A DNA stretch of 10,066 bases from a virus (taxonomy: Duplodnaviria; Heunggongvirae; Uroviricota; Caudoviricetes): positions 1 through 10,066 of IMG/VR virus record IMGVR_UViG_2663763227_000008. The stretch is one strand, 5' to 3'. Under the pieces are notes generated by a model. That model did no database searches. It was given only the letters and a program-made list of their open reading frames with translations, and was not told where the DNA came from. The position numbers and the translations under genes were made by a program. Below are positions 1 through 10,066 of this stretch, piece after piece. Position 1 is the stretch's first letter; each line of letters opens with the position of its first letter.

Positions 1-159
1 AGCAATAAATCTCCAGTCCGTTCTGCTTATCTTCGATTCATGACAGCCAATCATCTTTGCCAGACCGCGCTGGGTAAGCGTTGACAGGTTGATGAGTAAA
101 TCAGTTTCAGCGCGATCAATTTCTCGCTGTGTTGGCTTGCTGTAGCTTGCTTGTGTCAT
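1..159 (-). CDS. cII: CII-like transcriptional activator, N-terminal 53 codons only (gene continues beyond window start)
   Basis: Minus-strand ATG at 159-157; translation MTQASYSKPTQREIDRAETDLLINLSTLTQRGLAKMIGCHESKISRTDWRFIA has an HTH-like segment. It sits immediately downstream of cro/nutR as cII does in lambda, and a TTGC-N6-TTGC site lies inside its 5' end. Not lambda cII by sequence. Confidence 0.6.
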   Translation of the reverse strand, partial: MTQASYSKPTQREIDRAETDLLINLSTLTQRGLAKMIGCHESKISRTDWRFIA

Positions 160-169
160 TTGTTAATTT
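137..169 (+). promoter_or_regulatory. PRE-like promoter: CII-type direct repeat TTGC-N6-TTGC (137-150) with candidate -10 TAATTT (164-169)
   Basis: ttgc tgtagc ttgc at 137-150 on the plus strand, inside the 5' end of the cII-like gene and pointing toward cro/cI, as PRE does in lambda; the spacing to the -10 candidate is the same as I recall for lambda PRE. Confidence 0.5.
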
Positions 170-196
170 TCCAATAGTGAATAGTTAGTTGAAAGG

Positions 197-214
197 TATG
201 CGTTGAAACGCATA
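197..214 (-). other. Perfect inverted repeat tatgcgt-tgaa-acgcata between nutR and cII (tR1-position hairpin)
   Basis: 7-bp stem with 4-nt loop seen directly; no U-run follows on the minus strand, so if it terminates it would be rho-dependent, like lambda tR1. Confidence 0.3.
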
Positions 215-243
215 TGGCCTTAGTTGGTCAGATATCTTGGGGC

Positions 244-258
244 TCGCTTTGTCAGCGA
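244..258 (-). promoter_or_regulatory. nutR boxB RNA hairpin, P22-type GACAA pentaloop
   Basis: Minus-strand sequence tcgcu-GACAA-agcga: 5-bp stem, GACAA loop, located just downstream of cro in the PR transcript. A weak boxA-like ccgttcttt lies ~22 nt upstream in the transcript. Confidence 0.6.
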
Positions 259-296
259 CGTAGGACGAATGTCCATTGTGAAAAGAACGGTGTTAC

Positions 297-506
<210 letters not shown>

Positions 507-521
507 TTAGTACATGCAACC

Positions 522-550
522 ATTATCACCGCCAGAGGTAAAATAGTCAA
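522..550 (-). promoter_or_regulatory. PR promoter (-35 TTGACT = plus 545-550; -10 GATAAT = plus 522-527)
   Basis: Reverse complement of the plus strand gives TTGACT and GATAAT with 17-bp spacing, overlapping OR2/OR1 exactly as in lambda. Confidence 0.85.
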
Positions 551-562
551 CACGCACGGTGT

Positions 563-587
<25 letters not shown>
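524..587. promoter_or_regulatory. Right operator: OR1 524-540, OR2 548-564, OR3 571-587
   Basis: Three 17-bp sites tatcaccgccagaggta / caacacgcacggtgtta / tatcccttgcggtgata, identical to the lambda OR1, OR2 and OR3 sequences as I recall them. Confidence 0.9.
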
Positions 588-1311
<724 letters not shown>

Positions 1312-1316
1312 TGAAA

Positions 1317-1343
1317 GGTCGCACAGAAGTGCGGCCTTTTTTT
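1317..1343 (+). terminator. Intrinsic terminator immediately 3' of cI
   Basis: ggtcgcac-agaa-gtgcggcc: 8-bp stem (one G-U), 4-nt loop, followed by seven T (1337-1343), starting 6 nt after the cI stop codon. Confidence 0.7.
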
Positions 1344-1441
1344 ATGATTAATATATATAAATATCAATAACATAAGCATGTTATATAGCAATTAACATAC
1401 CTATCTACAAACGAGGTATACATCAGCATTTGTTCAGTCAA

Positions 1442-1536
1442 CCTGCAAAACATCACATCTCCTGCGCATTTTTAATTCACCTGCTAATTTTACATTCTCC
1501 TGCACTTTTTTATTGCTCCTGCATCATTGTGGTGCT
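1442..1536 (+). repeat. Five tandem 19-bp direct repeats, each beginning CCTGC (iteron-like array)
   Basis: CCTGC at 1442, 1461, 1480, 1499, 1518 (exact 19-bp period). Units: cctgcaaaacatcacatct / cctgcgcatttttaattca / cctgctaattttacattct / cctgcacttttttattgct / cctgcatcattgtggtgct. Confidence 0.8.
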
Positions 1537-1543
1537 TTAATAT
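1513..1543 (+). promoter_or_regulatory. Candidate sigma70 promoter for the ParA-like gene (-35 TTGCTC 1513-1518; -10 TTTAAT/TAATAT 1536-1543)
   Basis: Hexamer-like matches at 17-19 bp spacing overlapping the last repeat unit, ~25 nt upstream of a strong SD aaaggagg (1553-1560). Pattern match only. Confidence 0.3.
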
Positions 1544-1567
1544 TCAAAATTTAAAGGAGGAATTCAT

Positions 1568-2611
1568 ATGAGCACTGTAGTTGAGTCAGTAATGGCACGC
1601 TATGCACAAGTTGTTGAGGAAGGTTACGTCGTAGATGGCGGGCCAAAATTCAAAAGTTATGCAGTTTCCAATCTGCGCGGTGGTGTTGGTAAGTCCACGA
1701 TGACATTCAACCTCGCCTATGAGCTGTCACGACGTAACTCCGTATTAGTGGCTGACTTATGCCCGCAATGTAATTTAACGGAGACACTATTGCGTGGTGA
1801 AAAACCGGTTGTAACAATAGCTAATGCACTGACACCAAAAATGCTGGGTCCAGCTTTTGGTGAGCAGCCAGAAGATATTTCATATCGAGTAAGTAATTTC
1901 TGCCCAGATTTTAAAGGTGGTAAGGCATGTTATGCGATTCCAGGTGATCCTGAGCTATTCGCTTTCCCATCAAGCATGTATCAACAACTACAAGTAGCGC
2001 TATCTCGCGGAGAACCAAAAGCAGTATCAACACTATTAAATTCTCTTCGCGCAATAATGAACGATGAAGCGAAAGACAAAAAATGCGAAATTTTATTGAT
2101 GGATACAAGCCCTTTCTATGCTGGAGGAACACACCTAGCATGGTGCGCGTCTGAGGCATTGATTATCCCTGTACGCGTAGATGAACACTCAATTGAGTCA
2201 CTTCATCTCACAATGGAAATGCTGGCAAATAAATCAAAAGATTTTGTATTATGGAATGAGCGTGCGGGTGGGCTTGGGGCTCCAAAAGTAGCAGCGATCG
2301 TAATGACAATGGCTGGTTCAAAAAGCCGTAAATCATCAACACCAGGTCGCGCATCTCAAATGTACATAGAGAGAGCTGTAAAAATCGCTGAAAAATACAG
2401 TCATCTCTTTGCCGATGAAGATGTTAGCAAAGCAATTGTGGTTACAGATGATTTTGTATCAAGCGGGCAAATTAGTGGGGCTGAAAGCATACCAATATCA
2501 CAGCTAAAAGTTGGTCGCTTCCATACAGTAAGTGAAGGGAAAAGGTTACAAGTTAACCAGTCGGTTACTCGATATCAAAGACAACTTAAGTATCTGGCAA
2601 GTATTCTTTAA
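1568..2611 (+). CDS. ParA/MinD-family P-loop ATPase-like protein (347 aa) occupying the rexAB-equivalent slot
   Basis: Strong SD aaaggagg 7 nt before the ATG. Motifs read from the translation: deviant Walker A AVSNLRGGVGKST (res 32-44), Walker A' VLVADLCPQCNLT (59-71), Walker B EILLMDTSP (174-182); ~100-aa C-terminal extension with no recognised motif. Confidence 0.85.
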   Translation: MSTVVESVMARYAQVVEEGYVVDGGPKFKSYAVSNLRGGVGKSTMTFNLAYELSRRNSVLVADLCPQCNLTETLLRGEKPVVTIANALTPKMLGPAFGEQPEDISYRVSNFCPDFKGGKACYAIPGDPELFAFPSSMYQQLQVALSRGEPKAVSTLLNSLRAIMNDEAKDKKCEILLMDTSPFYAGGTHLAWCASEALIIPVRVDEHSIESLHLTMEMLANKSKDFVLWNERAGGLGAPKVAAIVMTMAGSKSRKSSTPGRASQMYIERAVKIAEKYSHLFADEDVSKAIVVTDDFVSSGQISGAESIPISQLKVGRFHTVSEGKRLQVNQSVTRYQRQLKYLASIL

Positions 2612-2616
2612 GCAAG

Positions 2617-2644
2617 AACCCGGCCTCAGCGCCGGGTTTTCTTT
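2617..2644 (+). terminator. Intrinsic terminator 3' of the ParA-like gene
   Basis: aacccggc-ctcagc-gccgggtt: 8-bp stem, 6-nt loop, then T-rich ttttcttt; starts 6 nt after the stop codon. Confidence 0.7.
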
Positions 2645-2790
2645 GCCTAACCCCCCCAAAAAAACACATAACCAATTGTATTTATTTGAAAATTAATAGA
2701 TACAACTCACTAAACATAGCAATTCAGATCTCTCACCTACCAAACAATGCACCCCTGCAAAAAATAAATTCATATAAAAAACATACAGAT

Positions 2791-2851
2791 AACCATCTGC
2801 GGTGATGAATTATCTCTAGCGGTGTTGACATAAATACCACTAGCGGTGATA
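2791..2851. promoter_or_regulatory. Left operator: OL3 2791-2807, OL2 2811-2827, OL1 2835-2851
   Basis: aaccatctgcggtgatg / tatctctagcggtgttg / taccactagcggtgata; lambda-like 17-bp sites, each differing at one position from the lambda OL sequences as I recall them. Confidence 0.85.
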
Positions 2852-2853
2852 CT
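2825..2853 (+). promoter_or_regulatory. pL promoter (-35 TTGACA 2825-2830; -10 GATACT 2848-2853)
   Basis: ttgacataaataccactagcggtgatact, 17-bp spacing; same hexamers as lambda pL, overlapping OL2/OL1. Confidence 0.85.
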
Positions 2854-2921
2854 AAACACATCAGCAGGACGCACTACTCACCAGGTCGGTGAATATACAA
2901 CGATTCGAATATGAATCTACG

Positions 2922-2936
2922 GCGCTGACAAAGCGC
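2922..2936 (+). promoter_or_regulatory. nutL boxB RNA hairpin, P22-type GACAA pentaloop
   Basis: gcgcu-GACAA-agcgc: 5-bp stem, GACAA loop, ~65 nt downstream of the pL start and upstream of the N-like gene. No convincing boxA identified. Confidence 0.65.
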
Positions 2937-3101
2937 AATAACCAAAGTGAACTTTGGGGTGTGGTGAAGGGTTCATGGACGGGAATATGTCGCACGTAAA
3001 GCGGCGAGGCCTGCGGGACTATTGCCGAATTGAAGTAGGCCGAAACAGGTCGAAATGGGTCTCCCACCTACCACACCACCAAAGATCATCAGGAGGTCTA
3101 T

Positions 3102-3485
3102 ATGACACGCAGAACTCAGTTCAAAGGCAATTCACGTTCTCGTCGTCGTGAGCTTTTAAAGGCAAAGGCATTAGCTAACGGCGTGCTGGCCCGCGAAGAA
3201 GCAATAAGTTCAGAAGTATTACACCGCCCTACTCTAAGCAGAGCGCAGATTCAGGCTAAAGGTACTCACGAAACGCCTGAGCGCATAGAAGACGCTAAGC
3301 CAATTAAGTTCATGGCACAGGACGTGATCTGGCAACAGAAAGAATACAGACGCAATCTGGAGCGAGCGGCCATTGTGTACGCGAATGAGTTTGGACATAA
3401 GCAACCAGAAACTGGTGTATGTCTTCCAAACGTAGCCATTTACGCGGCAGGCTACCGGAAATCAAAACAACTGACGGCGAGGTGA
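3102..3485 (+). CDS. N: N-family transcription antiterminator (P22 gp24-like)
   Basis: SD aggagg before the ATG; first gene after pL/nutL. N-terminal arginine-rich motif GNSRSRRRELLKAKALA; C-terminus LPNVAIYAAGYRKSKQLTAR resembles the P22 gene 24 product C-terminus as I recall it. Confidence 0.75.
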   Translation: MTRRTQFKGNSRSRRRELLKAKALANGVLAREEAISSEVLHRPTLSRAQIQAKGTHETPERIEDAKPIKFMAQDVIWQQKEYRRNLERAAIVYANEFGHKQPETGVCLPNVAIYAAGYRKSKQLTAR

Positions 3486-3545
3486 CTTGTGTTGGTCGCC
3501 AGAAAATGAAATTAGGCAGCAAACCACTTATTTGAGGACTGATAC

Positions 3546-3788
3546 ATGAGAGTAAAAACTATGGGCGCAAGCCCATTAAGTGGTCGTATTTTTCAAGGAA
3601 CATTAAACACTGAAAAAGGAATGTGGGTGGGAAAGAAAGAAGATGTAACCGAACAGGCAGTTAAGGCAGTAGCTGAACACATGATGATAAAAGACCAGAA
3701 ATATGCATACGAAACGAAGGATGGCAAATGGCTGATAATAAGTCATCAAATAGTTGATAAATTACCAGAAGAGTTTATTGCTGATTAA
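3546..3788 (+). CDS. Hypothetical early protein (80 aa)
   Basis: ORF with SD gagga 8 nt upstream; first gene after N, where lambdoid phages carry small host-interaction genes; no recognisable motif. Confidence 0.5.
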   Translation: MRVKTMGASPLSGRIFQGTLNTEKGMWVGKKEDVTEQAVKAVAEHMMIKDQKYAYETKDGKWLIISHQIVDKLPEEFIAD

Positions 3789-3826
3789 AATTATTTTGGC
3801 ATAAACAACAGAATAAACACTGCACT

Positions 3827-3854
3827 GTGTATTCATTCCAACGAGTGAATACAC
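3827..3854 (+). other. 12-bp inverted repeat / RNA hairpin gtgtattcattc-caac-gagtgaatacac
   Basis: Seen directly: 12-bp stem (one G-U), 4-nt loop, no U-run; in the intergenic gap after the 80-aa ORF. Confidence 0.5.
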
Positions 3855-3916
3855 GGAGCAATGTCGCTCGTAACTAAACAGGAGCCGACTTGTTCTGATT
3901 ATTGGAAATCTTCTTT

Positions 3917-3942
3917 GCCCTCCAGTGTGAGGGCCTTTTTAT
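3917..3942 (+). terminator. Intrinsic terminator (tL1-like position)
   Basis: gccctc-cagtgt-gagggc stem-loop followed by ctttttat; lies inside the pL operon, so it would be N-suppressible. Confidence 0.6.
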
Positions 3943-4006
3943 ATGCATACCAATAACGCTTCACTTGAGGCGTTTTCGTTATGCAATCAAACAGAAGGAG
4001 CATCCT

Positions 4007-4177
4007 ATGCAACAGTTCGCTATTGCAGGGGCGGCATCGGTTCGCCCTTTCAACCCGATTTTATCGGTACAGCATTCACGAAAAAACATTTTAACCGGAG
4101 CAGACTTTAAACAACCAAGAATGAAAAGTTTGCTCGAAAAGCTTTGGGATATTTTGAAACAACAAGGCCGTCCATGA
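4007..4177 (+). CDS. cIII: CIII-like small protein (56 aa)
   Basis: SD aggag before the ATG at 4007. MQQFAIAG... N-terminus and SLLEKLWDILKQQG segment resemble lambda CIII (MQYAIAG...; ...WKRLIDILNQPG) from memory. The longer TTG-initiated frame from 3902 is rejected because it runs through the terminator hairpin. Confidence 0.5.
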   Translation: MQQFAIAGAASVRPFNPILSVQHSRKNILTGADFKQPRMKSLLEKLWDILKQQGRP

Positions 4178-4332
4178 GTTTTACAGATAACTGGTCAGAC
4201 GAAGAATTCATTCGTCAGATGAAAGAATTAATCGGTAACGAAGGAGATATTCATGTCACTTGCAACCACAGTGAAGGAGAGCAAGTTACAGAGACGCATG
4301 TACACGCAGAAAGCTCTCTGGTATCGCCATAA
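4174..4332 (+). CDS. Hypothetical small acidic protein (52 aa)
   Basis: ATG overlaps the upstream stop (ATGA) suggesting translational coupling; translation MSFTDNWSDEEFIRQMKELIGNEGDIH...; no recognisable motif. Confidence 0.4.
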   Translation: MSFTDNWSDEEFIRQMKELIGNEGDIHVTCNHSEGEQVTETHVHAESSLVSP

Positions 4333-4433
4333 TGGCGACCGCGAAGGAATGCGGGTATGCCTTAATTTGTCCCGAGTCGAAGTATTAAATCAGCGTTATT
4401 TCCTTGGGCCATGTCCATTCTGAGAACAAACAT

Positions 4434-5039
4434 ATGAGCAAAGAATTTTACGCAAGACTGGCAGCTATTCAGGAGAATCTGAACGCGCCAAAAAATCAGT
4501 ACAACTCATTCGGTAAATATAAATACAGAAGCTGCGAAGACATTCTTGAAGGCGTTAAGCCGTTACTGAATGGCCTGTTTTTATCAATCAGCGATGAAGT
4601 TGTGTTGATTGGTGATCGGTATTACGTGAAAGCCACGGCAACTATTACCGATGGCGAAAACAGTCATACGGCAACCGCTCTTGCACGAGAGGAAGAAAGC
4701 AAGAAAGGAATGGATTCTGCACAAGTTACGGGAGCTACAAGCTCTTATGCACGCAAGTATTGCCTCAATGGTTTGTTCGGCATTGATGATGCGAAAGATG
4801 CAGATACAGACGAGCATAAACATCAGCAGAACGCAGCAGCAAAGCAATCAAAACCATCACCTACACCTGAACAGGTTCTAAAAGCATTCACTGACGCAGC
4901 AATGCAGAAAAACACCGTGGAAGAGCTTAAACAGGCGTTCGCCAAAGCGTGGAAGATGCTCGAAGGCACACCGGAGCAGCACAAAGCGCAGGACGTTTAC
5001 AACATCAGACGAGACGAATTAGAAGGAGCGGCTGCTTAA
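4434..5039 (+). CDS. erf: Erf-family single-strand annealing recombinase (P22 Erf-like)
   Basis: Translation MSKEFYARLAAIQENLNAPKNQYNSFGKYKYRSCEDILEGVKPLLNGLFLSISDEVVLIGDRYYVKATATITDGENSH... closely resembles P22 Erf as I recall it; ATG 4434 preferred over the upstream TTG at 4404. Confidence 0.8.
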   Translation: MSKEFYARLAAIQENLNAPKNQYNSFGKYKYRSCEDILEGVKPLLNGLFLSISDEVVLIGDRYYVKATATITDGENSHTATALAREEESKKGMDSAQVTGATSSYARKYCLNGLFGIDDAKDADTDEHKHQQNAAAKQSKPSPTPEQVLKAFTDAAMQKNTVEELKQAFAKAWKMLEGTPEQHKAQDVYNIRRDELEGAAA

Positions 5040-5422
5040 TGGCACATTCGATTACTGTAAGACTAAACAAGCCCGCAAGAGAGTTTCAGGCCGGGGAAAA
5101 TATCGGATTCAACATCCGTGCTGGCGTTCAGTATTACGATCGCCAGACAAAAAAGAAAGAATGGACAAACTACAGCGCCGTTGTATTTGCCAAGCCGGGA
5201 GCGCAAGCGGATTACTACCGTAGTGTTCTTGTTGAAGGTGGCATTGTAGAAATTACCGGAGAAAACATCAGGGTTGATGTTTATCAGGGGCAAAATGGTC
5301 AATCAATCACTCTTGAATTACTGAATGCAAAGATTGGATTTGCAACTTCAGGAAACAGCCAACAGCAGCAAAGTAGCAATCATCAAAATCATCCTGAATA
5401 CGACGATTCAATTCCATTCTAA
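5039..5422 (+). CDS. Putative single-stranded DNA-binding protein (OB-fold-like), coupled to erf
   Basis: Start overlaps the erf stop (TAATG) with SD aggag upstream. 127 aa with an SSB-like pattern (KEWTNYSAVVFAKPGAQADYYRSVLVEGGIVEITGENIRVDVY) and a Q/S-rich acidic tail ending DDSIPF, reminiscent of the SSB C-terminal tip. Confidence 0.55.
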   Translation: MAHSITVRLNKPAREFQAGENIGFNIRAGVQYYDRQTKKKEWTNYSAVVFAKPGAQADYYRSVLVEGGIVEITGENIRVDVYQGQNGQSITLELLNAKIGFATSGNSQQQQSSNHQNHPEYDDSIPF

Positions 5423-5445
5423 AGTAGCAACATAAGGATTCCATT

Positions 5446-5742
5446 ATGCCAGCGCCTCTGTATGGTGCGGACGACGCGCGCCGCTGTTCCGGCAATTCCG
5501 TATCGGAGGTGCTGGATAAATTCAGAAAAAACTACGATCGGATAATGTCGCTACCACAGGAAACGAAAGAGGAAAAGGAATTTCGCCACTGTATATGGCT
5601 TGCAGAGAAAGAAGAACGCGAGCGAATTTACCAGACATCAATCCGACCATTCCGCAAAGCCACATATACCCACTTCCCTGAATATATCGACCCGCGCCTG
5701 CGTAATTACCGCTCACGCTATGGCGCTATCAGTAATGACTGA
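5446..5742 (+). CDS. Hypothetical protein (98 aa)
   Basis: ORF with SD aagga upstream; no recognisable motif. Confidence 0.5.
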   Translation: MPAPLYGADDARRCSGNSVSEVLDKFRKNYDRIMSLPQETKEEKEFRHCIWLAEKEERERIYQTSIRPFRKATYTHFPEYIDPRLRNYRSRYGAISND

Positions 5743-5752
5743 GGAGTTAACA

Positions 5753-6043
5753 ATGAAAACAATGAAGCTGAACATCGACCTCGGAAAATACGTTATTACC
5801 GGAACCAAACACGACCTGATTCTTAGCGAAAGAGGAATTATCAAAGAAGGTGAGAATGCAGGGAAAGAAACACTAAGCCGTATCGGTTATTACAGCAAGT
5901 TTGAGCATCTGGTTAAAGAGTTATTAAACCGTGAAATTCTGTTATCTCAGGCGCAGACGCTACAGGATATTCAGCAGCATATCGAAACTTTAGGTGTGTC
6001 ACTTAGCATGGCTATTGACCAGTTCGTGGAGAGTAAATCATGA
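5753..6043 (+). CDS. Hypothetical protein (96 aa)
   Basis: SD gaggag 6 nt before the ATG at 5753; the TTG-initiated extension from 5600 is rejected because it overlaps the previous gene out of frame. Confidence 0.5.
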
Positions 6044-6204
6044 GAGGACTTGCATACAATCCCGGCATTCTTCCGGCAGAAATGATTATTCGCCAACGCG
6101 TAAAGCCAATGCCATCGAGAGAGGAATTGCTTAAGAGAAATTCTTTTCCATCAGTGAATCAAAACAAATATCTGAATGCGATGTGGCGGAGTGGGAAGAA
6201 ATGA
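6040..6204 (+). CDS. Hypothetical small protein (54 aa), not in the supplied ORF track (below length cutoff)
   Basis: ATG overlaps the upstream stop (ATGA) and its own stop overlaps the next ATG (ATGA), filling what would otherwise be a gap in a coupled gene string; translation [54 protein letters not shown]. Confidence 0.35.
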
Positions 6205-6671
6205 AACAAATGTCACTAATTGAGATGGATGGTTTTCTGAAAGGTAAATGCATCCCACGAGATTTAAAGGTTAACGAAACAAATGCTGAATATCTGGTGC
6301 GTAAATTTGCTGAAGCTGAGGCCAAGTGCGCGGCACTGGCGGTGGAGAATGCGGGAATAAAGTCTGCAATTCCTCAACTACGGGATATTGATGCTGACAA
6401 TGACAATATGGATGACGTATCTCTTGCTGAAGACTTCGGATTCAATCATGCAATAGAACGGATGAGGAGACAGATACCTGAAACCCCAGCCACCGATGCT
6501 TTTCTGGCTGAAGTACGGGCGCAGGGCGTGGAGATGTACGCAGATAACCTCGACAACGCAGCAGACGACGCAGAACGAGGTGGTTTTGATTATGCCGTTA
6601 AGTTTCTACGCAGTGAAGCGTCTAGTGTACGTTTGTTCGCCGGCCAGCTTCGCAAAGGAGGCAAACAGTGA
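6201..6671 (+). CDS. Hypothetical acidic protein (156 aa from ATG 6201; alternative GTG start at 6183)
   Basis: Long ORF in the coupled string; acidic, Ala/Asp-rich; no recognisable motif. Confidence 0.5.
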
Positions 6672-7486
6672 GCGAAATTGACTATCAGGCACTGCGTGCT
6701 AAGGCAGAGAAAGCAACGTGTGGTGCGTGGTCGCTCGAATATGGAGAGGGCCGATTTGATGGTGATGATGCGCTAATTCATCGCAAGGCTGCTGGATATA
6801 TTCCCATTTGCAGAATTGAAGGAGCGCATCCAGAAAGCGGTTTCGATGAAGATTTCCAAATGGAACAGCAGGCCAATGCTGAATTCATCGCCGCAGCCAA
6901 TCCGGCTACTGTGCTGGCGCTTCTGGATGAACGGGAAAGAAACCAGCAATACATCAAACGCCGTGACCAGGAGAACGAGGATATTGCTCTTACGGTTGGG
7001 AAGCTGAGAGTTGAGCTTGAGGAAGTAAAACAACACGCTGAAGAATTATCCGAAACCAAGGCTGTTCGTAACCAATGGCGGCCAGATATTTGCCCAATAA
7101 CCGGACGTGCATTTTTCATGTGGATTGAGCATCCAACATTGGGGAATGTGCCGACATATGGTGGCCCATTAGATAGTTACACCATTCCAACAAAGGACGG
7201 TGACGGTGAGTTTTCATGTGAGCGTTACGATCATGATTTTGGCGGTTGGGTAGAAAGCGAATGTCTTGGGTTATATCTGATTGATGATAGAGAACAATGC
7301 AGGGTCTACGAACTGGAGGAACGCGTTAAGGAACTGGATGCTCGGGAAATATCGCTCCCGGAACGTAGCAGCATGCTTCATCGAACAGATTTTCACGATG
7401 ATTACCAAACGGTAATGGCATACAAAGTTTCTGAAGTCATCGATGCAATCCGCGCTACTGGCATTCGCATCAAAGGAGGTGAGTAG
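6668..7486 (+). CDS. Ea22/Ead-like family protein (272 aa)
   Basis: GTG start with SD aaggagg and GTGA overlap with the upstream stop. N-terminus [16 protein letters not shown] and segment LLDERERNQQYIKRRDQENEDIALTVGKLRVELEE resemble Ea22-like prophage proteins from memory; central coiled-coil-like region. Confidence 0.5.
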   Translation: MSEIDYQALRAKAEKATCGAWSLEYGEGRFDGDDALIHRKAAGYIPICRIEGAHPESGFDEDFQMEQQANAEFIAAANPATVLALLDERERNQQYIKRRDQENEDIALTVGKLRVELEEVKQHAEELSETKAVRNQWRPDICPITGRAFFMWIEHPTLGNVPTYGGPLDSYTIPTKDGDGEFSCERYDHDFGGWVESECLGLYLIDDREQCRVYELEERVKELDAREISLPERSSMLHRTDFHDDYQTVMAYKVSEVIDAIRATGIRIKGGE

Positions 7487-7662
7487 TGCGTGTGGCATGT
7501 ATCGGCTTGTTACCGTACCCGACTCGTTTTTGGGCTTCTGCGCTAATTGCAAAGCCACATGTCCTGATGACTGACAACATCATCCCGGCACCAAAGCGCC
7601 GCCATACCGGTATTGCAGCGGCACGACGAGCAGCAAAGAGACGCAGGAGAGCAAAACGATGA
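7486..7662 (+). CDS. Hypothetical small basic protein (58 aa, GTG start), not in ORF track
   Basis: GTG overlaps the upstream TAG; Arg/Lys-rich C-terminus AARRAAKRRRRAKR; its stop overlaps the next ATG (ATGA). Supported only by coupling geometry. Confidence 0.25.
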   Translation: MRVACIGLLPYPTRFWASALIAKPHVLMTDNIIPAPKRRHTGIAAARRAAKRRRRAKR

Positions 7663-7835
7663 AAAACCGTAAAGCAAAATTACTTCTTTTATCGCGTTCG
7701 ACGGGGTACGAGAAGCTACCAATCAGCAATCACAAACGGGCGGTGATCGGCATGTTTGGTAGGGTGGTATTCGCATTTAACTATAAACCCACCGCGTCGC
7801 GTAACAGACGAGAGAAGGGGTACGCAGTGCGATGA
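7659..7835 (+). CDS. Hypothetical small protein (58 aa), N-terminus MKNRKAKLL, not in ORF track
   Basis: ATG overlaps the upstream stop; its first ~20 nt are duplicated at the start of the next ORF (7832). Confidence 0.25.
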   Translation: MKNRKAKLLLLSRSTGYEKLPISNHKRAVIGMFGRVVFAFNYKPTASRNRREKGYAVR

Positions 7836-8023
7836 AAAACCGTAAAGCTAAGATGCTTATCTCCCGTGTATACAGACTTTGCTATCCCAGCCAGTGGTTG
7901 AGAGTTAGCAATCGCTGTGTGGTGTTGTTTTCATTTTCTGGAATTGCCAGAGAGGGAATCAAAGATAAGCGCAGCGCGGCGCAAAACCGCTGGAAAAACC
8001 ACTTGCGCACTAAAGGAGCCTGA
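7832..8023 (+). CDS. Hypothetical small protein (63 aa), N-terminus MKNRKAKML
   Basis: ATG overlaps the upstream stop (ATGA); shares its 5' 19 nt exactly with the start of the previous small ORF. Confidence 0.3.
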   Translation: MKNRKAKMLISRVYRLCYPSQWLRVSNRCVVLFSFSGIAREGIKDKRSAAQNRWKNHLRTKGA

Positions 8024-8024
8024 T

Positions 8025-8234
8025 ATGGCTATTGCCGCAAGTTACACCATGCATCTCTATTGTGATTGCCTCCAGTGTACAGATGGCAAATATAAGTCGC
8101 CAGACTTCGGTGAGTATATAGGTACGTCATGGGCTGGCTGTGCAAAAGAGGCGCGCAAGGATGGCTGGCGAATAAGCAAAGACAAAACGCGTGCTTTTGC
8201 GCCCGGGCATAAAGTTTTGAGGATTAACAAATGA
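8025..8234 (+). CDS. Hypothetical Cys-rich small protein (69 aa; C-x-C-x2-C ... C, possible zinc-binding)
   Basis: SD aaggag 6 nt upstream of ATG 8025; translation MAIAASYTMHLYCDCLQCTDGKYKSPDFGEYIGTSWAGCAKEARKDGW...; the GTG-initiated extension from 7917 is rejected. Confidence 0.45.
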   Translation: MAIAASYTMHLYCDCLQCTDGKYKSPDFGEYIGTSWAGCAKEARKDGWRISKDKTRAFAPGHKVLRINK

Positions 8235-9025
8235 CCACTATAACCAAAGAGCGACTGCTGACAATCAAGCAGTGGCGCGAAACATACGGACCTGGTAGCA
8301 ACGTTGTACTGCCAGCAGAAGAAGCGGAAGAACTGGCACGAATTGCACTGGCATCGCTGGAACGCGAACAGATTCGCCACGAGCATGCCAAATGGTCTGA
8401 CTCCACATTTGGCTGCGTTGGCCCCATTGGTCCACTGAAACACCTCTCAAAAGAGGCTATGGAAACCGCAGCCGAACCAGACGATCTCAGCGAGTGGGCT
8501 GATATGCATTTCCTGTTGTGGGATGCACAGCGCCGTGCTGGCATCAGCGATGCTGAAATTACCGCTGCTATGGAAGATAAATTGAAGATCAACATGGAGC
8601 GCCAGTGGCCTGAACCAAAAGATGGTGAGCCTCGCTTGCACATTAAAGAACCCGGCAACTCTCCGGTAATTCCGGATGATTTATCCACGGTATGCGCTGA
8701 GGCTTATCAGGTTGTAGGAGTTATGGCAGATGCGCTTGGTGTATTCGGTGATGCAGCAGTACAGAAAGTTCTGGATAACCTGTCACAGCAAAAACTTGTT
8801 CACAGAGATGTGCTGCCGTTCTCGCTTCCGGTGACTCCGGATGGTTGGATAAGCTGTAGTGAGCGAATGCCCCCTCAAGATGATTGGATTTTAATTTATT
8901 CAAAGCACGGCGAGTATATGGCAGGACAGGTACAAGGGGAATACGTGGAGTTGAGCGACGGCACTTTATCGTGGTTAGGGAACGCCTTGTTCTGGATGCC
9001 GCTACCAGAACCGCCTCAGGGGTGA
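8231..9025 (+). CDS. DUF550-like (putative dNTP pyrophosphohydrolase-like) N-terminal domain fused to DUF551-like C-terminal domain (264 aa)
   Basis: ATGA overlap with the upstream stop. N-terminal region (MTTITKERLLTIKQWRETYGPGSNVVLPAEEAEELARIA ... WSDSTFG) and C-terminal region (GWISCSERMPP ... WMPLPEPP) resemble these prophage families from memory. Confidence 0.5.
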   Translation: MTTITKERLLTIKQWRETYGPGSNVVLPAEEAEELARIALASLEREQIRHEHAKWSDSTFGCVGPIGPLKHLSKEAMETAAEPDDLSEWADMHFLLWDAQRRAGISDAEITAAMEDKLKINMERQWPEPKDGEPRLHIKEPGNSPVIPDDLSTVCAEAYQVVGVMADALGVFGDAAVQKVLDNLSQQKLVHRDVLPFSLPVTPDGWISCSERMPPQDDWILIYSKHGEYMAGQVQGEYVELSDGTLSWLGNALFWMPLPEPPQG

Positions 9026-9091
9026 AATGATGCTTGGCCTGAAGTATTTTATGTAATTGGTATTGCTATATTTTTATCTGGGGATAAACGA

Positions 9092-9334
9092 ATGTTCTCT
9101 CTGATTCAACGTGGTCAGATATACACCGATAGCGCTGGCTATCCAGTAAAAATCATTCGTAGTACTGATCACTCAGTGTTCTTCAAGAGGATGGATGGCT
9201 ATCCTGGAAGAGTGTGCATCCGAAAATTCAATAATTTATTCGAACACATTGATCACAGAGAATATCACCAGATCCTGGCTGAAACAGAGCAGGAGAACCA
9301 TCTGAAAAAATTACGTGCCATGCAAAGGAGATAA
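9092..9334 (+). CDS. Hypothetical protein (80 aa), possibly DUF4222-like
   Basis: Pattern RGQIYTDSAGYPVKII...SVFFKRMDGYPGRVCIRKFNNLFEHI resembles the G-x-Y-x-D ... V-x-F-x-R-x-G-Y ... C pattern I associate with small prophage DUF4222 proteins; weak SD. Confidence 0.4.
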   Translation: MFSLIQRGQIYTDSAGYPVKIIRSTDHSVFFKRMDGYPGRVCIRKFNNLFEHIDHREYHQILAETEQENHLKKLRAMQRR

Positions 9335-9414
9335 ACCGGTAAAGGTGTTCGCGATAAAGGTGAATATCGACAATGAATAACAATCCTCGCACTCGCGGGG
9401 ATCTCTTTTATCTG

Positions 9415-9440
9415 AACTCGCTACGGCGAGTTTTGTTTTA
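9415..9440 (+). terminator. Intrinsic terminator-like hairpin with U-run, 12 nt upstream of the next start codon
   Basis: aactcgc-tacg-gcgagtt stem-loop followed by ttttgtttta. Confidence 0.5.
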
Positions 9441-9452
9441 TGGAGACAAGAA

Positions 9453-9797
9453 ATGTCAGATTTGGCTATGAAGGTTTTGAAATGGCAATCAACTGGCGAT
9501 GTTGGCATCAGTAGCGCAACTCTTGCCTCAATCGCATGTGGACTGAAAAAGAATATCTATGGTCATCACTTCGGCGCTCCCCATGACGCAGCCGATTTCA
9601 GACGATGCGTTGCACTTGTTGAGCAGATTCCAGAAATCAGAGATTCATTCGACAAGGTTGCAAAGCGCGTTCCGTCATTCAAAGGAATCCTCAACGAATG
9701 GGATTCCCTCGTTGCTCTGTTGAAGTCTGAAATGAAGATACACGGAAACAAAGCACCAGAGACTTACAGAAGAATTAGCGAGTTACGCAAGGACTAA
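9453..9797 (+). CDS. Hypothetical protein (114 aa)
   Basis: SD ggaga upstream of the ATG; no recognisable motif. Confidence 0.5.
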   Translation: MSDLAMKVLKWQSTGDVGISSATLASIACGLKKNIYGHHFGAPHDAADFRRCVALVEQIPEIRDSFDKVAKRVPSFKGILNEWDSLVALLKSEMKIHGNKAPETYRRISELRKD

Positions 9798-9834
9798 CGC
9801 CTCACACTCGATGAGGCCTGTACATATCTGATAG

Positions 9835-9856
9835 AGCCGCTATATGGCGGTTTTTT
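9835..9856 (+). terminator. Weak intrinsic terminator (short GC stem plus T6), preceded by a second hairpin at 9799-9817
   Basis: ccgc-tatatg-gcgg followed by tttttt; upstream hairpin gcctca-cactcga-tgaggc has no U-run. Confidence 0.35.
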
Positions 9857-9874
9857 ATTGCCTGGAGAATTAAG

Positions 9875-10066
9875 ATGACCAATACCAGCCTGATTCCTGA
9901 GAAAGAAGTGATGAACAAGCTCGGTGTTTCATCACGTCAGACAATCTGGAACTATACCAAACGGCACGGATTTCCGAAGCCAGTCAGAACCCACCCCAAA
10001 TCATACCTTCGTGAAGCTGTTGAAGGGTGGATTCTTAACGGTGGCGTTAATCAGAAATGCTCCTGA
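9875..10066 (+). CDS. xis: Excisionase / AlpA-family HTH DNA-binding protein (63 aa), stop codon at the last base of the window
   Basis: SD ggaga upstream; translation LIPEKEVMNKLGVSSRQTIWNYTKRHGFPKPVR...YLREAVEGWI fits the excisionase/AlpA HTH pattern; terminal position in the pL operon is where xis precedes int. Confidence 0.6.
   Translation: MTNTSLIPEKEVMNKLGVSSRQTIWNYTKRHGFPKPVRTHPKSYLREAVEGWILNGGVNQKCS

Follow-up and report, generated by a model that had tools for sequence, protein, structure and literature searches.

What reads a row of five short repeats that stands directly in front of a ParA-like gene in the immunity region of a lambdoid prophage, and what does it serve? The stretch analyzed here, referred to as the window, is the 10,066 nucleotides of the Caudoviricetes virus record IMGVR_UViG_2663763227_000008 (IMG/VR, positions 1 to 10,066). 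It covers the immunity and early-left region of a lambdoid (lambda-type) prophage, in an orientation reversed with respect to the lambda map. The reading that we favor, and hold to be reasonably probable from the comparison of homologous loci, is that the repeats are the cognate binding sites and the operator of the ParA-like ATPase encoded downstream. Judged by the same comparison, array and gene together are a self-contained two-part mobile module. Its elements in the window are the following:

1442 to 1522, plus strand: array of five CCTGC boxes (1442-1446, 1461-1465, 1480-1484, 1499-1503, 1518-1522) at an exact 19-bp period.
1513 to 1518, plus strand: putative -35 element TTGCTC, read from the sequence and overlapping the start of box 5 by one base.
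1533 to 1541, plus strand: putative extended -10 element TG-n-TTTAAT, read from the sequence, 17 bp past the putative -35.
1554 to 1561, plus strand: Shine-Dalgarno sequence AAAGGAGG.
1568 to 2611, plus strand: gene for an ATPase of the ParA/Soj/McdA fold, 347 residues (Pfam, AlphaFold2 and Foldseek), starting at ATG 1568.

A preliminary description of this DNA had reported CCTGC five times at exactly 19-bp intervals with A/T-rich tails, beginning at 1442, 1461, 1480, 1499 and 1518, and had judged the array to be far from chance expectation. Both points hold: the positions were verified, and in 60 first-order Markov shuffles the longest fixed-period run of any pentamer (periods of 8-40 bp) was 2 or 3, never 5. 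Tandem Repeats Finder independently returned a 19-bp period over 1461-1528, and only four other CCTGC are present on the plus strand of the 10,066 bp (388, 2754, 3010 and 5697). In its extended form the box is a-CCTGC-a, and the spacers are T-rich. The array also overlaps the candidate promoter as proposed, with the putative -35 ending on the first base of box 5, but its distance from the Shine-Dalgarno sequence had been overestimated, the last 19-bp unit ending 18 bp and not about 30 bp before it. An Rfam search of positions 1250-1650 on both strands gave sub-threshold noise near the terminator that follows cI and no known RNA element. In the interval from box 5 to the putative -10, the terminator scan also returned a weak hairpin at 1521-1535, GCATCATTGTGGTGC then TTTAATATT; homologues do not conserve this pairing, and it is probably due to chance. 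Including the A that is preferred at position -1, the box becomes ACCTGC (1441-1446 in the window, and most boxes in other loci), a sequence recognized by type IIS enzymes, e.g. BspMI and BfuAI; this likeness is probably coincidental.

The promoter of the ATPase gene must lie within the array, because in the 74 homologous loci the last box begins as little as 17-114 nt (median 43) before the start codon. In five enterobacterial homologues the TTG of the -35 is invariant, the hexamer immediately next to the last box being TTGATC or TTGCTC. Four of them also have TGnTTTAAT or TGnTTAAAT, which the Rahnella locus L012 lacks. The putative -35 at 1513-1518 went undetected in a strict consensus sigma-70 scan. 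With box 5 in the -35/-10 spacer and boxes 1-4 abutting the -35, occupancy of the array would set transcription of the ATPase gene, and binding by the ATPase would be expected to repress its own promoter. An autoregulatory operator for the ATPase had been one of the suggestions of the preliminary description; it emerges from the comparison as the best-supported reading, within which binding and repression are what we infer.

When homologous cassettes were compared, the periodic array, which might have been missing from them according to the earlier proposal for a check, was present in 73 of 74 loci as 3-12 same-strand boxes directly upstream of the gene, on a lattice of 9- and 19-bp steps. All 44 loci from viral contigs have 4-12 boxes. 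In 34 loci, the 200 bp upstream of the gene contain 170 same-strand boxes, from which the extended motif a-CCTGC-a was derived; this amounts to 25 per kb, whereas the remainder of the loci has 1.9 per kb on each strand, and only 17 boxes in the same 34 x 200 bp are reverse-oriented. The step between boxes is 19 bp in 241 cases (74 + 167) and 9 bp in 83 (35 + 48), and nearly all other steps are sums of 9 and 19 (28, 38, 57). Three types of layout are found repeatedly, with steps of 19 bp only (the window being an example), with 9 and 19 bp in alternation, or with runs of 9-bp steps. The near-equal rotational offset of 9- and 19-bp steps on B-DNA suggests that neighboring bound units need a fixed angular relation. 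A single other on-lattice cluster was detected in 653 kb of loci, and it is the inverted half of the divergent control region of locus L015 itself; moreover, no second array lies within about 5 kb of the gene in the 74 loci, which argues against a flanking-centromere layout.

Among five Enterobacterales (61-86% protein identity), essentially nothing is invariant upstream of the gene apart from the boxes, TTG in the -35 and some positions of the -10 region; here and in the wider loci the spacers diverge while the boxes stay invariant. At 19-bp spacing, there are six boxes in Pantoea and five each in Franconibacter and Sodalis; in the P2-like Ralstonia phage RsoM1USA, with a homologue of 62% identity, the five boxes are CCTGCA and irregularly spaced. 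The same CCTGC box was found in Sorangium, Verrucomicrobia, Mycobacterium, Cellulosimicrobium, Hymenobacteraceae and alpha-, beta- and gamma-proteobacteria. As relatives at or below 32% identity (an Aeromonas plasmid ParA and the ParA-like protein of phage phi297) have no upstream array, the array defines a subfamily from about 50% identity upwards. Locus L042, a degenerate paralogue of L021, was uninformative. In L016 (22-160), six identical 20-bp units, CCTGCATCTTCTCCGGGCGA, stand ahead of normal 19/9 boxes; they are a recent tandem amplification, one base off the lattice, which shows how arrays could grow.

The identity of the protein that reads the boxes can be approached through a clade in which they differ. 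In loci L034, L035, L096, L097 and L098, whose proteins are about 50% identical to that of the window, the boxes are A-CC-R-CAC at the same 19-bp period, with seven of them in L035. This clade was found in Hyphomicrobiales, Allorhizobium, Paraburkholderia and metagenomes, in contexts with an insertion sequence (IS), a lysis module or an integrase, and its sister clade (L099, L100) has CCTGC boxes. Thirty-two protein positions switch with the box type. Seven of these fall within residues 318-334, a segment of 17 residues made up of a hairpin and a helix start (scan-statistic p = 0.03), and so do five of the eleven switching positions whose conservation within the CCTGC clade is 95% or more (p = 0.006). 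The beta-hairpin itself (318-328) is conserved and precedes the last, C-terminal helix; these correlations indicate that it is probably the part of the ATPase that reads the box.

Neighbor clustering of 36 loci yielded no protein family common to most of them, and there is one credible open reading frame (ORF) in the cassette that holds the array in the window (1308-2620), in agreement with the earlier remark that no partner gene is evident. Four IS-borne loci share a family of small ORFs of 78-97 residues (L014:2363-2626, L015:1484-1777 and L019:2108-2368, all on the minus strand, and L035:4574-4810), which in L019 lies within the IS ends. This family was rejected as a general partner, having no Pfam match and weak PHROG matches of unknown function, and being missing from the prophage copies. 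Since there is no partner, one box is common to five phyla and the box type switches with the protein clade, we infer that the ATPase is the box reader. That the array is always present with the gene, overlaps its promoter and co-varies in box type with the clade likewise argues that these are the ATPase's own sites.

The encoded protein scored 50.6 bits with Pfam AAA_31 (cut-off 27) and 38.4 bits with CbiA (cut-off 25.4). Its AlphaFold2 (AF2) model (pLDDT 87, pTM 0.89) was matched by Foldseek to Soj (2bek), McdA (6nop) and ParA (8ray) with probability 1.0 and TMq 0.45-0.54, delta (2oze) being also a fold match, and the solved structures are 15-20% identical to it. By its fold and P-loop NTPase domain it thus belongs to the ParA/MinD (SIMIBI, deviant Walker A) superfamily. 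Its Walker A motif is LRGGVGKS (RGGVGKST at window 1676-1699, residues 37-44), in which R37 replaces the signature lysine of the deviant motif (K-GG-x-x-K-[ST]), and this arginine is invariant in 46 of 46 aligned homologues. The NCBIfam model ParA_partition gave 36.7 bits against a cut-off of 180, with a match limited to residues 32-73; the PHROG match is to a "ParA-like partition protein", and in a sequence search of the PDB the P-loop region alone matched ParA, Soj, McdA and PF-32. No defense family was matched in PADLOC-DB 2.0, where the best score was that of PDC-M28B (E = 0.0011, 16 bits), in the P-loop region only. In the AF2 model, the N-terminus consists of about 30 residues with one helix (4-18) before the P-loop strand. 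Homologues number 1,500 or more; those of 57-70% identity are present in Proteobacteria, Verrucomicrobia, Myxococcota, Actinobacteria and Bacteroidota, and such high identity across phyla would be typical of a horizontally mobile gene.

In the window, the module is contained in a moron cassette downstream of the repressor gene, with these neighboring features:

598 to 1311: cI, with an S24 peptidase domain and a helix-turn-helix (HTH) (Pfam).
1308 to 2620, plus strand: moron cassette comprising a terminator, an AT-rich leader, the box array, the promoter and one ParA-like gene (blastn against HK97).
1313 to 1340, plus strand: intrinsic terminator hairpin, 12 pairs then TTTTTTT, just past the cI stop codon (terminator scan).
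2618 to 2644, plus strand: terminator-like hairpin ACCCGGC...GCCGGGT then TTTTCTTT (read from the sequence).
3102 to 3485: N (profile match).

The cassette is 1,313 bp long and lies between cI and a common t_imm-type terminator followed by N. According to blastn, positions 1-1307 are the cI gene and flank of HK97 at 97.8% identity and positions 2621-3549 are HK97 at 95%, the cassette replacing gp49-gp48 of that phage; genes kil, erf, abc and DUF551 are annotated further downstream in matching prophages. The equivalent cI-N slot holds rexAB in lambda, HicAB in HK106 and mEp234, and a BstA-type gene in a related E. coli prophage (H3). At the left end, the terminator at 1313-1340 would shield the module from read-through from cI/PRM. 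It is separated from the array by about 100 bp of AT-rich DNA, and a similar hairpin is found upstream of the arrays in Pantoea L003 and Rahnella L012. The right boundary (2620/2621) falls inside the 5' stem arm of the 2618-2644 hairpin, most of which is backbone DNA common to other lambdoids. Accordingly, window 2608-2720 matches the rexB end and downstream DNA in lambda-carrying K-12 strains and in many other prophages; the terminator scan did not list this hairpin. As a whole the cassette is rare, being found in five of 5,426 complete E. coli genomes (98.8-100% identity), each time in a chromosomal prophage.

In other loci, the gene most often encountered upstream encodes a CI-type repressor (17 of 61 loci have Peptidase_S24, and further ones other HTH proteins); integrase, tail and Q genes are also found there. 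A P. aeruginosa lambdoid prophage shows the same order of Cro, cI, six CCTGC boxes and gene. At eight of about 36 genomic loci an IS1-family DDE transposase (DDE_Tnp_IS1-type, about 300 residues) stands beside the module, usually divergent across the array, and a nearly invariant IS1-type inverted terminal repeat, GGTAGTGGGTCAGTTTGAA, brackets transposase, array and ATPase. Elements bracketed in this way occur in Verrucomicrobia, Mycobacterium, Sorangium and Proteobacteria:

IS1-type elements carrying the module: L019:25-2413; L009:3230-6209; L018:3970-7167; L020:2382-6468; L011:2161-7053; L037:4314-6377.

The last of these, L037, apparently has GGTAGTGGGTCAGTTTGAA ends without a transposase. 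No sequence resembling the IS1 inverted repeat was found in the window or in any viral locus, and the window copy does not qualify as IS1 cargo. Carriage by IS1-family transposons probably explains the spread across phyla. In L015 (295-344, minus strand), six reverse boxes at 9-bp steps lie next to the forward array and face the upstream gene, and the upstream regions of L013 and L018 likewise show reverse boxes, then forward boxes facing the ATPase gene; in these IS-linked loci the arrangement suggests bidirectional control of transposase and ATPase. In Sphingomonas paucimobilis (L100:3001-4038) array and gene stand alone, with a malic enzyme upstream, dehydrogenases downstream and no integrase, transposase or phage genes within 3 kb, and from this case a unit of about 1.3 kb may insert on its own. 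The plasmid collection contained no homologue above 32% identity, the other copies being integrated prophages or chromosomal transposons. In phi297 (L045/L220, 15492-16544), a distant ParA-like gene (26% identity) without upstream array comes right after the repressor, so the post-repressor slot draws ParA-like genes of more than one lineage. Taken together, the homes of the module (rexAB/BstA slot, prophage ends and IS cargo) suggest an accessory function expressed in the lysogen, possibly exclusion or defense.

If the array is the operator of the ATPase, protomers or a small DNA-reading surface of this protein would recognize a-CCTGC-a and pack along the DNA in 9- or 19-bp steps only. Several points weigh against such a scheme. 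Pfam detects no recognizable DNA-binding domain in the ATPase. ParA-type sandwich dimers have two-fold symmetry and as a rule bind DNA without sequence specificity, and the reading of direct repeats as close as 9 bp would need an unusual recognition mode. The switch in box type is a single evolutionary event, so that in phylogenetic terms the co-variation with the protein is a sample of one. The putative -10 departs from the consensus at position 2, where it has no A, and the strict sigma-70 scan did not detect it. Finally, arrays without the gene are present in other phages, which points to a role or history beyond that of operator and makes another binder possible.

These gene-less arrays were found by scanning viral contigs for four boxes at 19 bp, which returned more than 119 stretches, of which 80 were examined. 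About 12 precede a ParA-like gene and about 15 are trivial tandem repeats with identical spacers, and several lineages have genuine gene-less arrays with 9/19 steps and diverged, T-rich spacers. In the Pseudomonas phages phi297 and JBD44, an antisense insertion of about 66 bp with five boxes immediately precedes the signal-peptide region of a spanin-type lipoprotein gene; it is missing from PAJU2 and phi1, which are otherwise collinear. The loci concerned are:

L220 (phi297), 46788 to 46858, minus strand: orphan array with steps 9/19/19/19 in the lysis cassette (compare L223, JBD44, gp44).
L222 (PAJU2), ORF029, and L224 (phi1), "lipoprotein": insertion-free counterparts.
L221 (Klebsiella phage 2 LV-2017), 2522 to 2583: Klebsiella-type orphan array, a type with 4-6 boxes; also L103, L107, L113, L124, L125, L136 and others.

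The Pseudomonas array has been annotated as an N-terminal extension of the lipoprotein gene, and a region homologous to the phi297 array locus is present in 56 Pseudomonas phage records. Klebsiella-type arrays are antisense in the linker of EaA/DUF551 genes, directly after a conserved CRAAMLQ joint. Their pairwise identity is 100% in the boxes, 69% in the spacers and 48-50% in the flanks, and the boxes are translated in three successive frames (LQE, SAG, CRS, VQV) of an otherwise variable peptide; this three-frame reading, together with the invariance of the boxes, implies selection on the DNA and not on the peptide. When the E. coli genomes were searched with a Klebsiella-type array, the CRAAMLQ joint of DUF551 genes matched and the array did not; the window has no CRAAMLQ joint. 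In L159 and L176 an array occupies the post-cI slot after other morons, and in L101 it is upstream of an unrelated small gene. As a control, the viral contigs were scanned for four CCRCAC at 19 bp, giving nine matches, all trivial tandem repeats with identical spacers, and no additional members of the variant-box clade. It may be that the orphan arrays are relics or joints left by recombination, or else that they serve in trans as sites for an ATPase encoded on co-resident elements.

The slot and the orphan arrays bring in another possible role, in which the array would be mainly a trans-acting "self" or immunity element of a prophage exclusion or abortive-infection protein, like aba for BstA; we regard this as unlikely, though deserving serious attention. 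The ParA-like protein would act on foreign replicating DNA, array-bearing DNA such as that of the own induced phage would suppress or titrate it, and orphan arrays would represent escape by mimicry, an operator function being compatible with all of this. BstA is a precedent for a cognate direct-repeat DNA element paired with a moron: aba is 63 bp long, comprising 29 bp upstream and the first 34 bp of the gene, with essential direct repeats (PMC8585504), and it is DNA-based, active in trans at high copy and paired in specificity with the BstA variant (Owen et al. 2021, PMC8585504). The cassette lies in the slot that elsewhere holds BstA (H3), rexAB or HicAB, P. aeruginosa prophages carry the module with CCTGC boxes, specificity pairs of box and protein exist (CCTGC vs CC-R-CAC clades), and gene-less phages show a presence/absence insertion in Pseudomonas and DNA-level selection in the Klebsiella type. 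However, nothing marks the protein as a defense protein (a P-loop-level match in PADLOC, E = 0.001, and none found in the literature), the orphans could be relics or recombination joints, IS1-family transposons would have no obvious need for self-immunity, and the E. coli genomes searched contain no orphan array like the Klebsiella-type query. By analogy one might go further and propose a new single-gene, DNA-marked exclusion or defense module across phyla, its array being operator and "self" marker and the Pseudomonas and Klebsiella orphans counter-defense decoys or targeting sites; this proposal we put forward tentatively, as doubtful. The ParA/Soj/McdA fold and the PHROG match would also suit a partition or tethering system made up of one protein, in which the array would play the part of a centromere. 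Its ATPase, bound specifically to the array and non-specifically to the nucleoid, would position or retain array-bearing DNA, e.g. excised phage or transposon circles, and orphan arrays could hitch-hike on the protein in trans. Repeats upstream of parA double as operator and centromere in pSM19035 delta/omega, parC/ParR and parH/ParG. We nevertheless consider partition very unlikely here, as the elements are integrated prophages and chromosomal transposons without an adaptor, the ParA_partition score is far below its cut-off, plasmids yielded no close homologue, and one array per element, exactly on the promoter, fits regulation better.

A host factor bound to the array was among the preliminary suggestions and is disfavored by a box that is common to five phyla and follows the gene, switching with the protein clade and not with the host. 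In a broader form, in which a host protein or a protein of a co-resident element binds the boxes and the ParA-like gene is one of several that it controls, the idea draws on the gene-less arrays of several lineages, among them L101 before its unrelated small gene and L159 and L176 after other morons. The switch of box type with the ParA-like clade in different hosts and the absence of any other recurrent protein speak against this idea, which we also consider very unlikely, and we know of no ubiquitous DNA-binding protein with a CCTGC-box site. Least probable of the readings weighed is that the repeats have no binding function, being products of tandem duplication or short linkers that serve as cassette recombination joints. 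The Klebsiella-type (class B) arrays do lie at a mosaic CRAAMLQ joint between unrelated flanks, and the 20-bp unit of L016 was recently amplified in tandem. Even so, spacers have diverged around boxes that are invariant over large evolutionary distances, strand orientation is strict (170 vs 17), the 9/19 lattice is conserved, the control hexamer at the same period gave only trivial repeats with identical spacers, and boxes of five bases are too short to guide homologous recombination. Binding sites and operator of the ATPase thus remain the reading that we favor.

In the current view, ParA-type ATPases bind DNA non-specifically and are directed to a particular site by an adaptor protein; the subfamily described here, which is very widespread and highly conserved, seems to do without one and to possess a sequence-specific array of its own. 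If the protein does read the boxes, this would be a new mode of DNA recognition for the ParA fold, with a pentamer on a 9/19-bp lattice as its rule, and the natural specificity variants make that rule directly testable. If the module is an exclusion system with a DNA self-marker, the principle of BstA and aba would reach an unrelated protein family, and counter-measures by phages would account for the orphan arrays. Prophages and IS1-family transposons carry the module from phylum to phylum, its sites also occur alone in competing phages, and the copy in the window sits in the classic defense/moron slot of lambdoid phages. We found no description of such a module in the literature, absence from the searchable literature being no proof that it is undescribed.

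The preliminary description had likened the locus to a type Ib parC/parA locus or to iterons, and neither comparison holds in the sense of membership. A direct-repeat array over the promoter is indeed found upstream, as in type Ib loci, but there is no adjacent adaptor gene (ParB/ParG-type), the cassette is integrated and not part of an extrachromosomal replicon, and the Walker A lysine is replaced by arginine. As for iterons, no Rep gene lies beside the array, the phage O/P replication genes are across cI, and where the ParA-like gene occurs in IS elements and unrelated phages the array is there with it. Transposon helpers resemble the module in that an ATPase stands beside a DDE transposase in one transposon, where the array fills the divergent control region and could regulate transposition. 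However, MuB, TnsC, IstB and TniB are AAA+ ATPases and not of the ParA/MinD type, and most copies of the module, that of the window included, have no transposase. With BstA and aba it shares the single-gene moron in the post-repressor slot, a cognate direct-repeat DNA element and paired specificity of protein and DNA, whereas BstA is not a ParA-like ATPase and aba has two terminal CCCGCC repeats and no periodic array; membership of the BstA family was rejected, as neither Pfam nor PADLOC matches BstA.

Functionally, the closest known kind is a ParA-family ATPase with a repeat-array operator. In the type Ib/II centromere-operators parH/ParG (TP228) and parC/ParR (R1, pB171, pSK41), direct-repeat arrays upstream of the par operon double as operator, and their regular spacing implies a helical protein-DNA assembly; a small adaptor is, however, encoded downstream of the ATPase on extrachromosomal replicons, and the module of the window has neither. 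In delta/omega of pSM19035, arrays of 7-bp heptads upstream of the delta promoter are operator and centromere. They too are short, packed repeats directly upstream of a ParA-like gene and over its promoter, variable in number and arrangement, but the heptads are contiguous 7-mers read by the ribbon-helix-helix protein omega, for which the module has no such gene, its own box being of 5-7 bp at 9 or 19 bp. SopA of F, acting on four CTTTGC repeats, and ParA of P1, acting on parOP, are type Ia ATPases that autoregulate their own promoter. The likeness is that an ATPase of the ParA superfamily occupies a number of short sites in the promoter of its own gene and represses transcription from it, as the protein of the window would probably do. 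Those proteins have an N-terminal HTH, ParB/SopB, a separate centromere, and plasmids or plasmid prophages as their replicons. The protein of the window does not belong to type Ia, as it has no N-terminal winged-HTH domain of about 100 residues; compared to SopA and P1 ParA, its module has a single N-terminal helix, no partner, direct repeats on a 9/19-bp lattice, and an integrated location.

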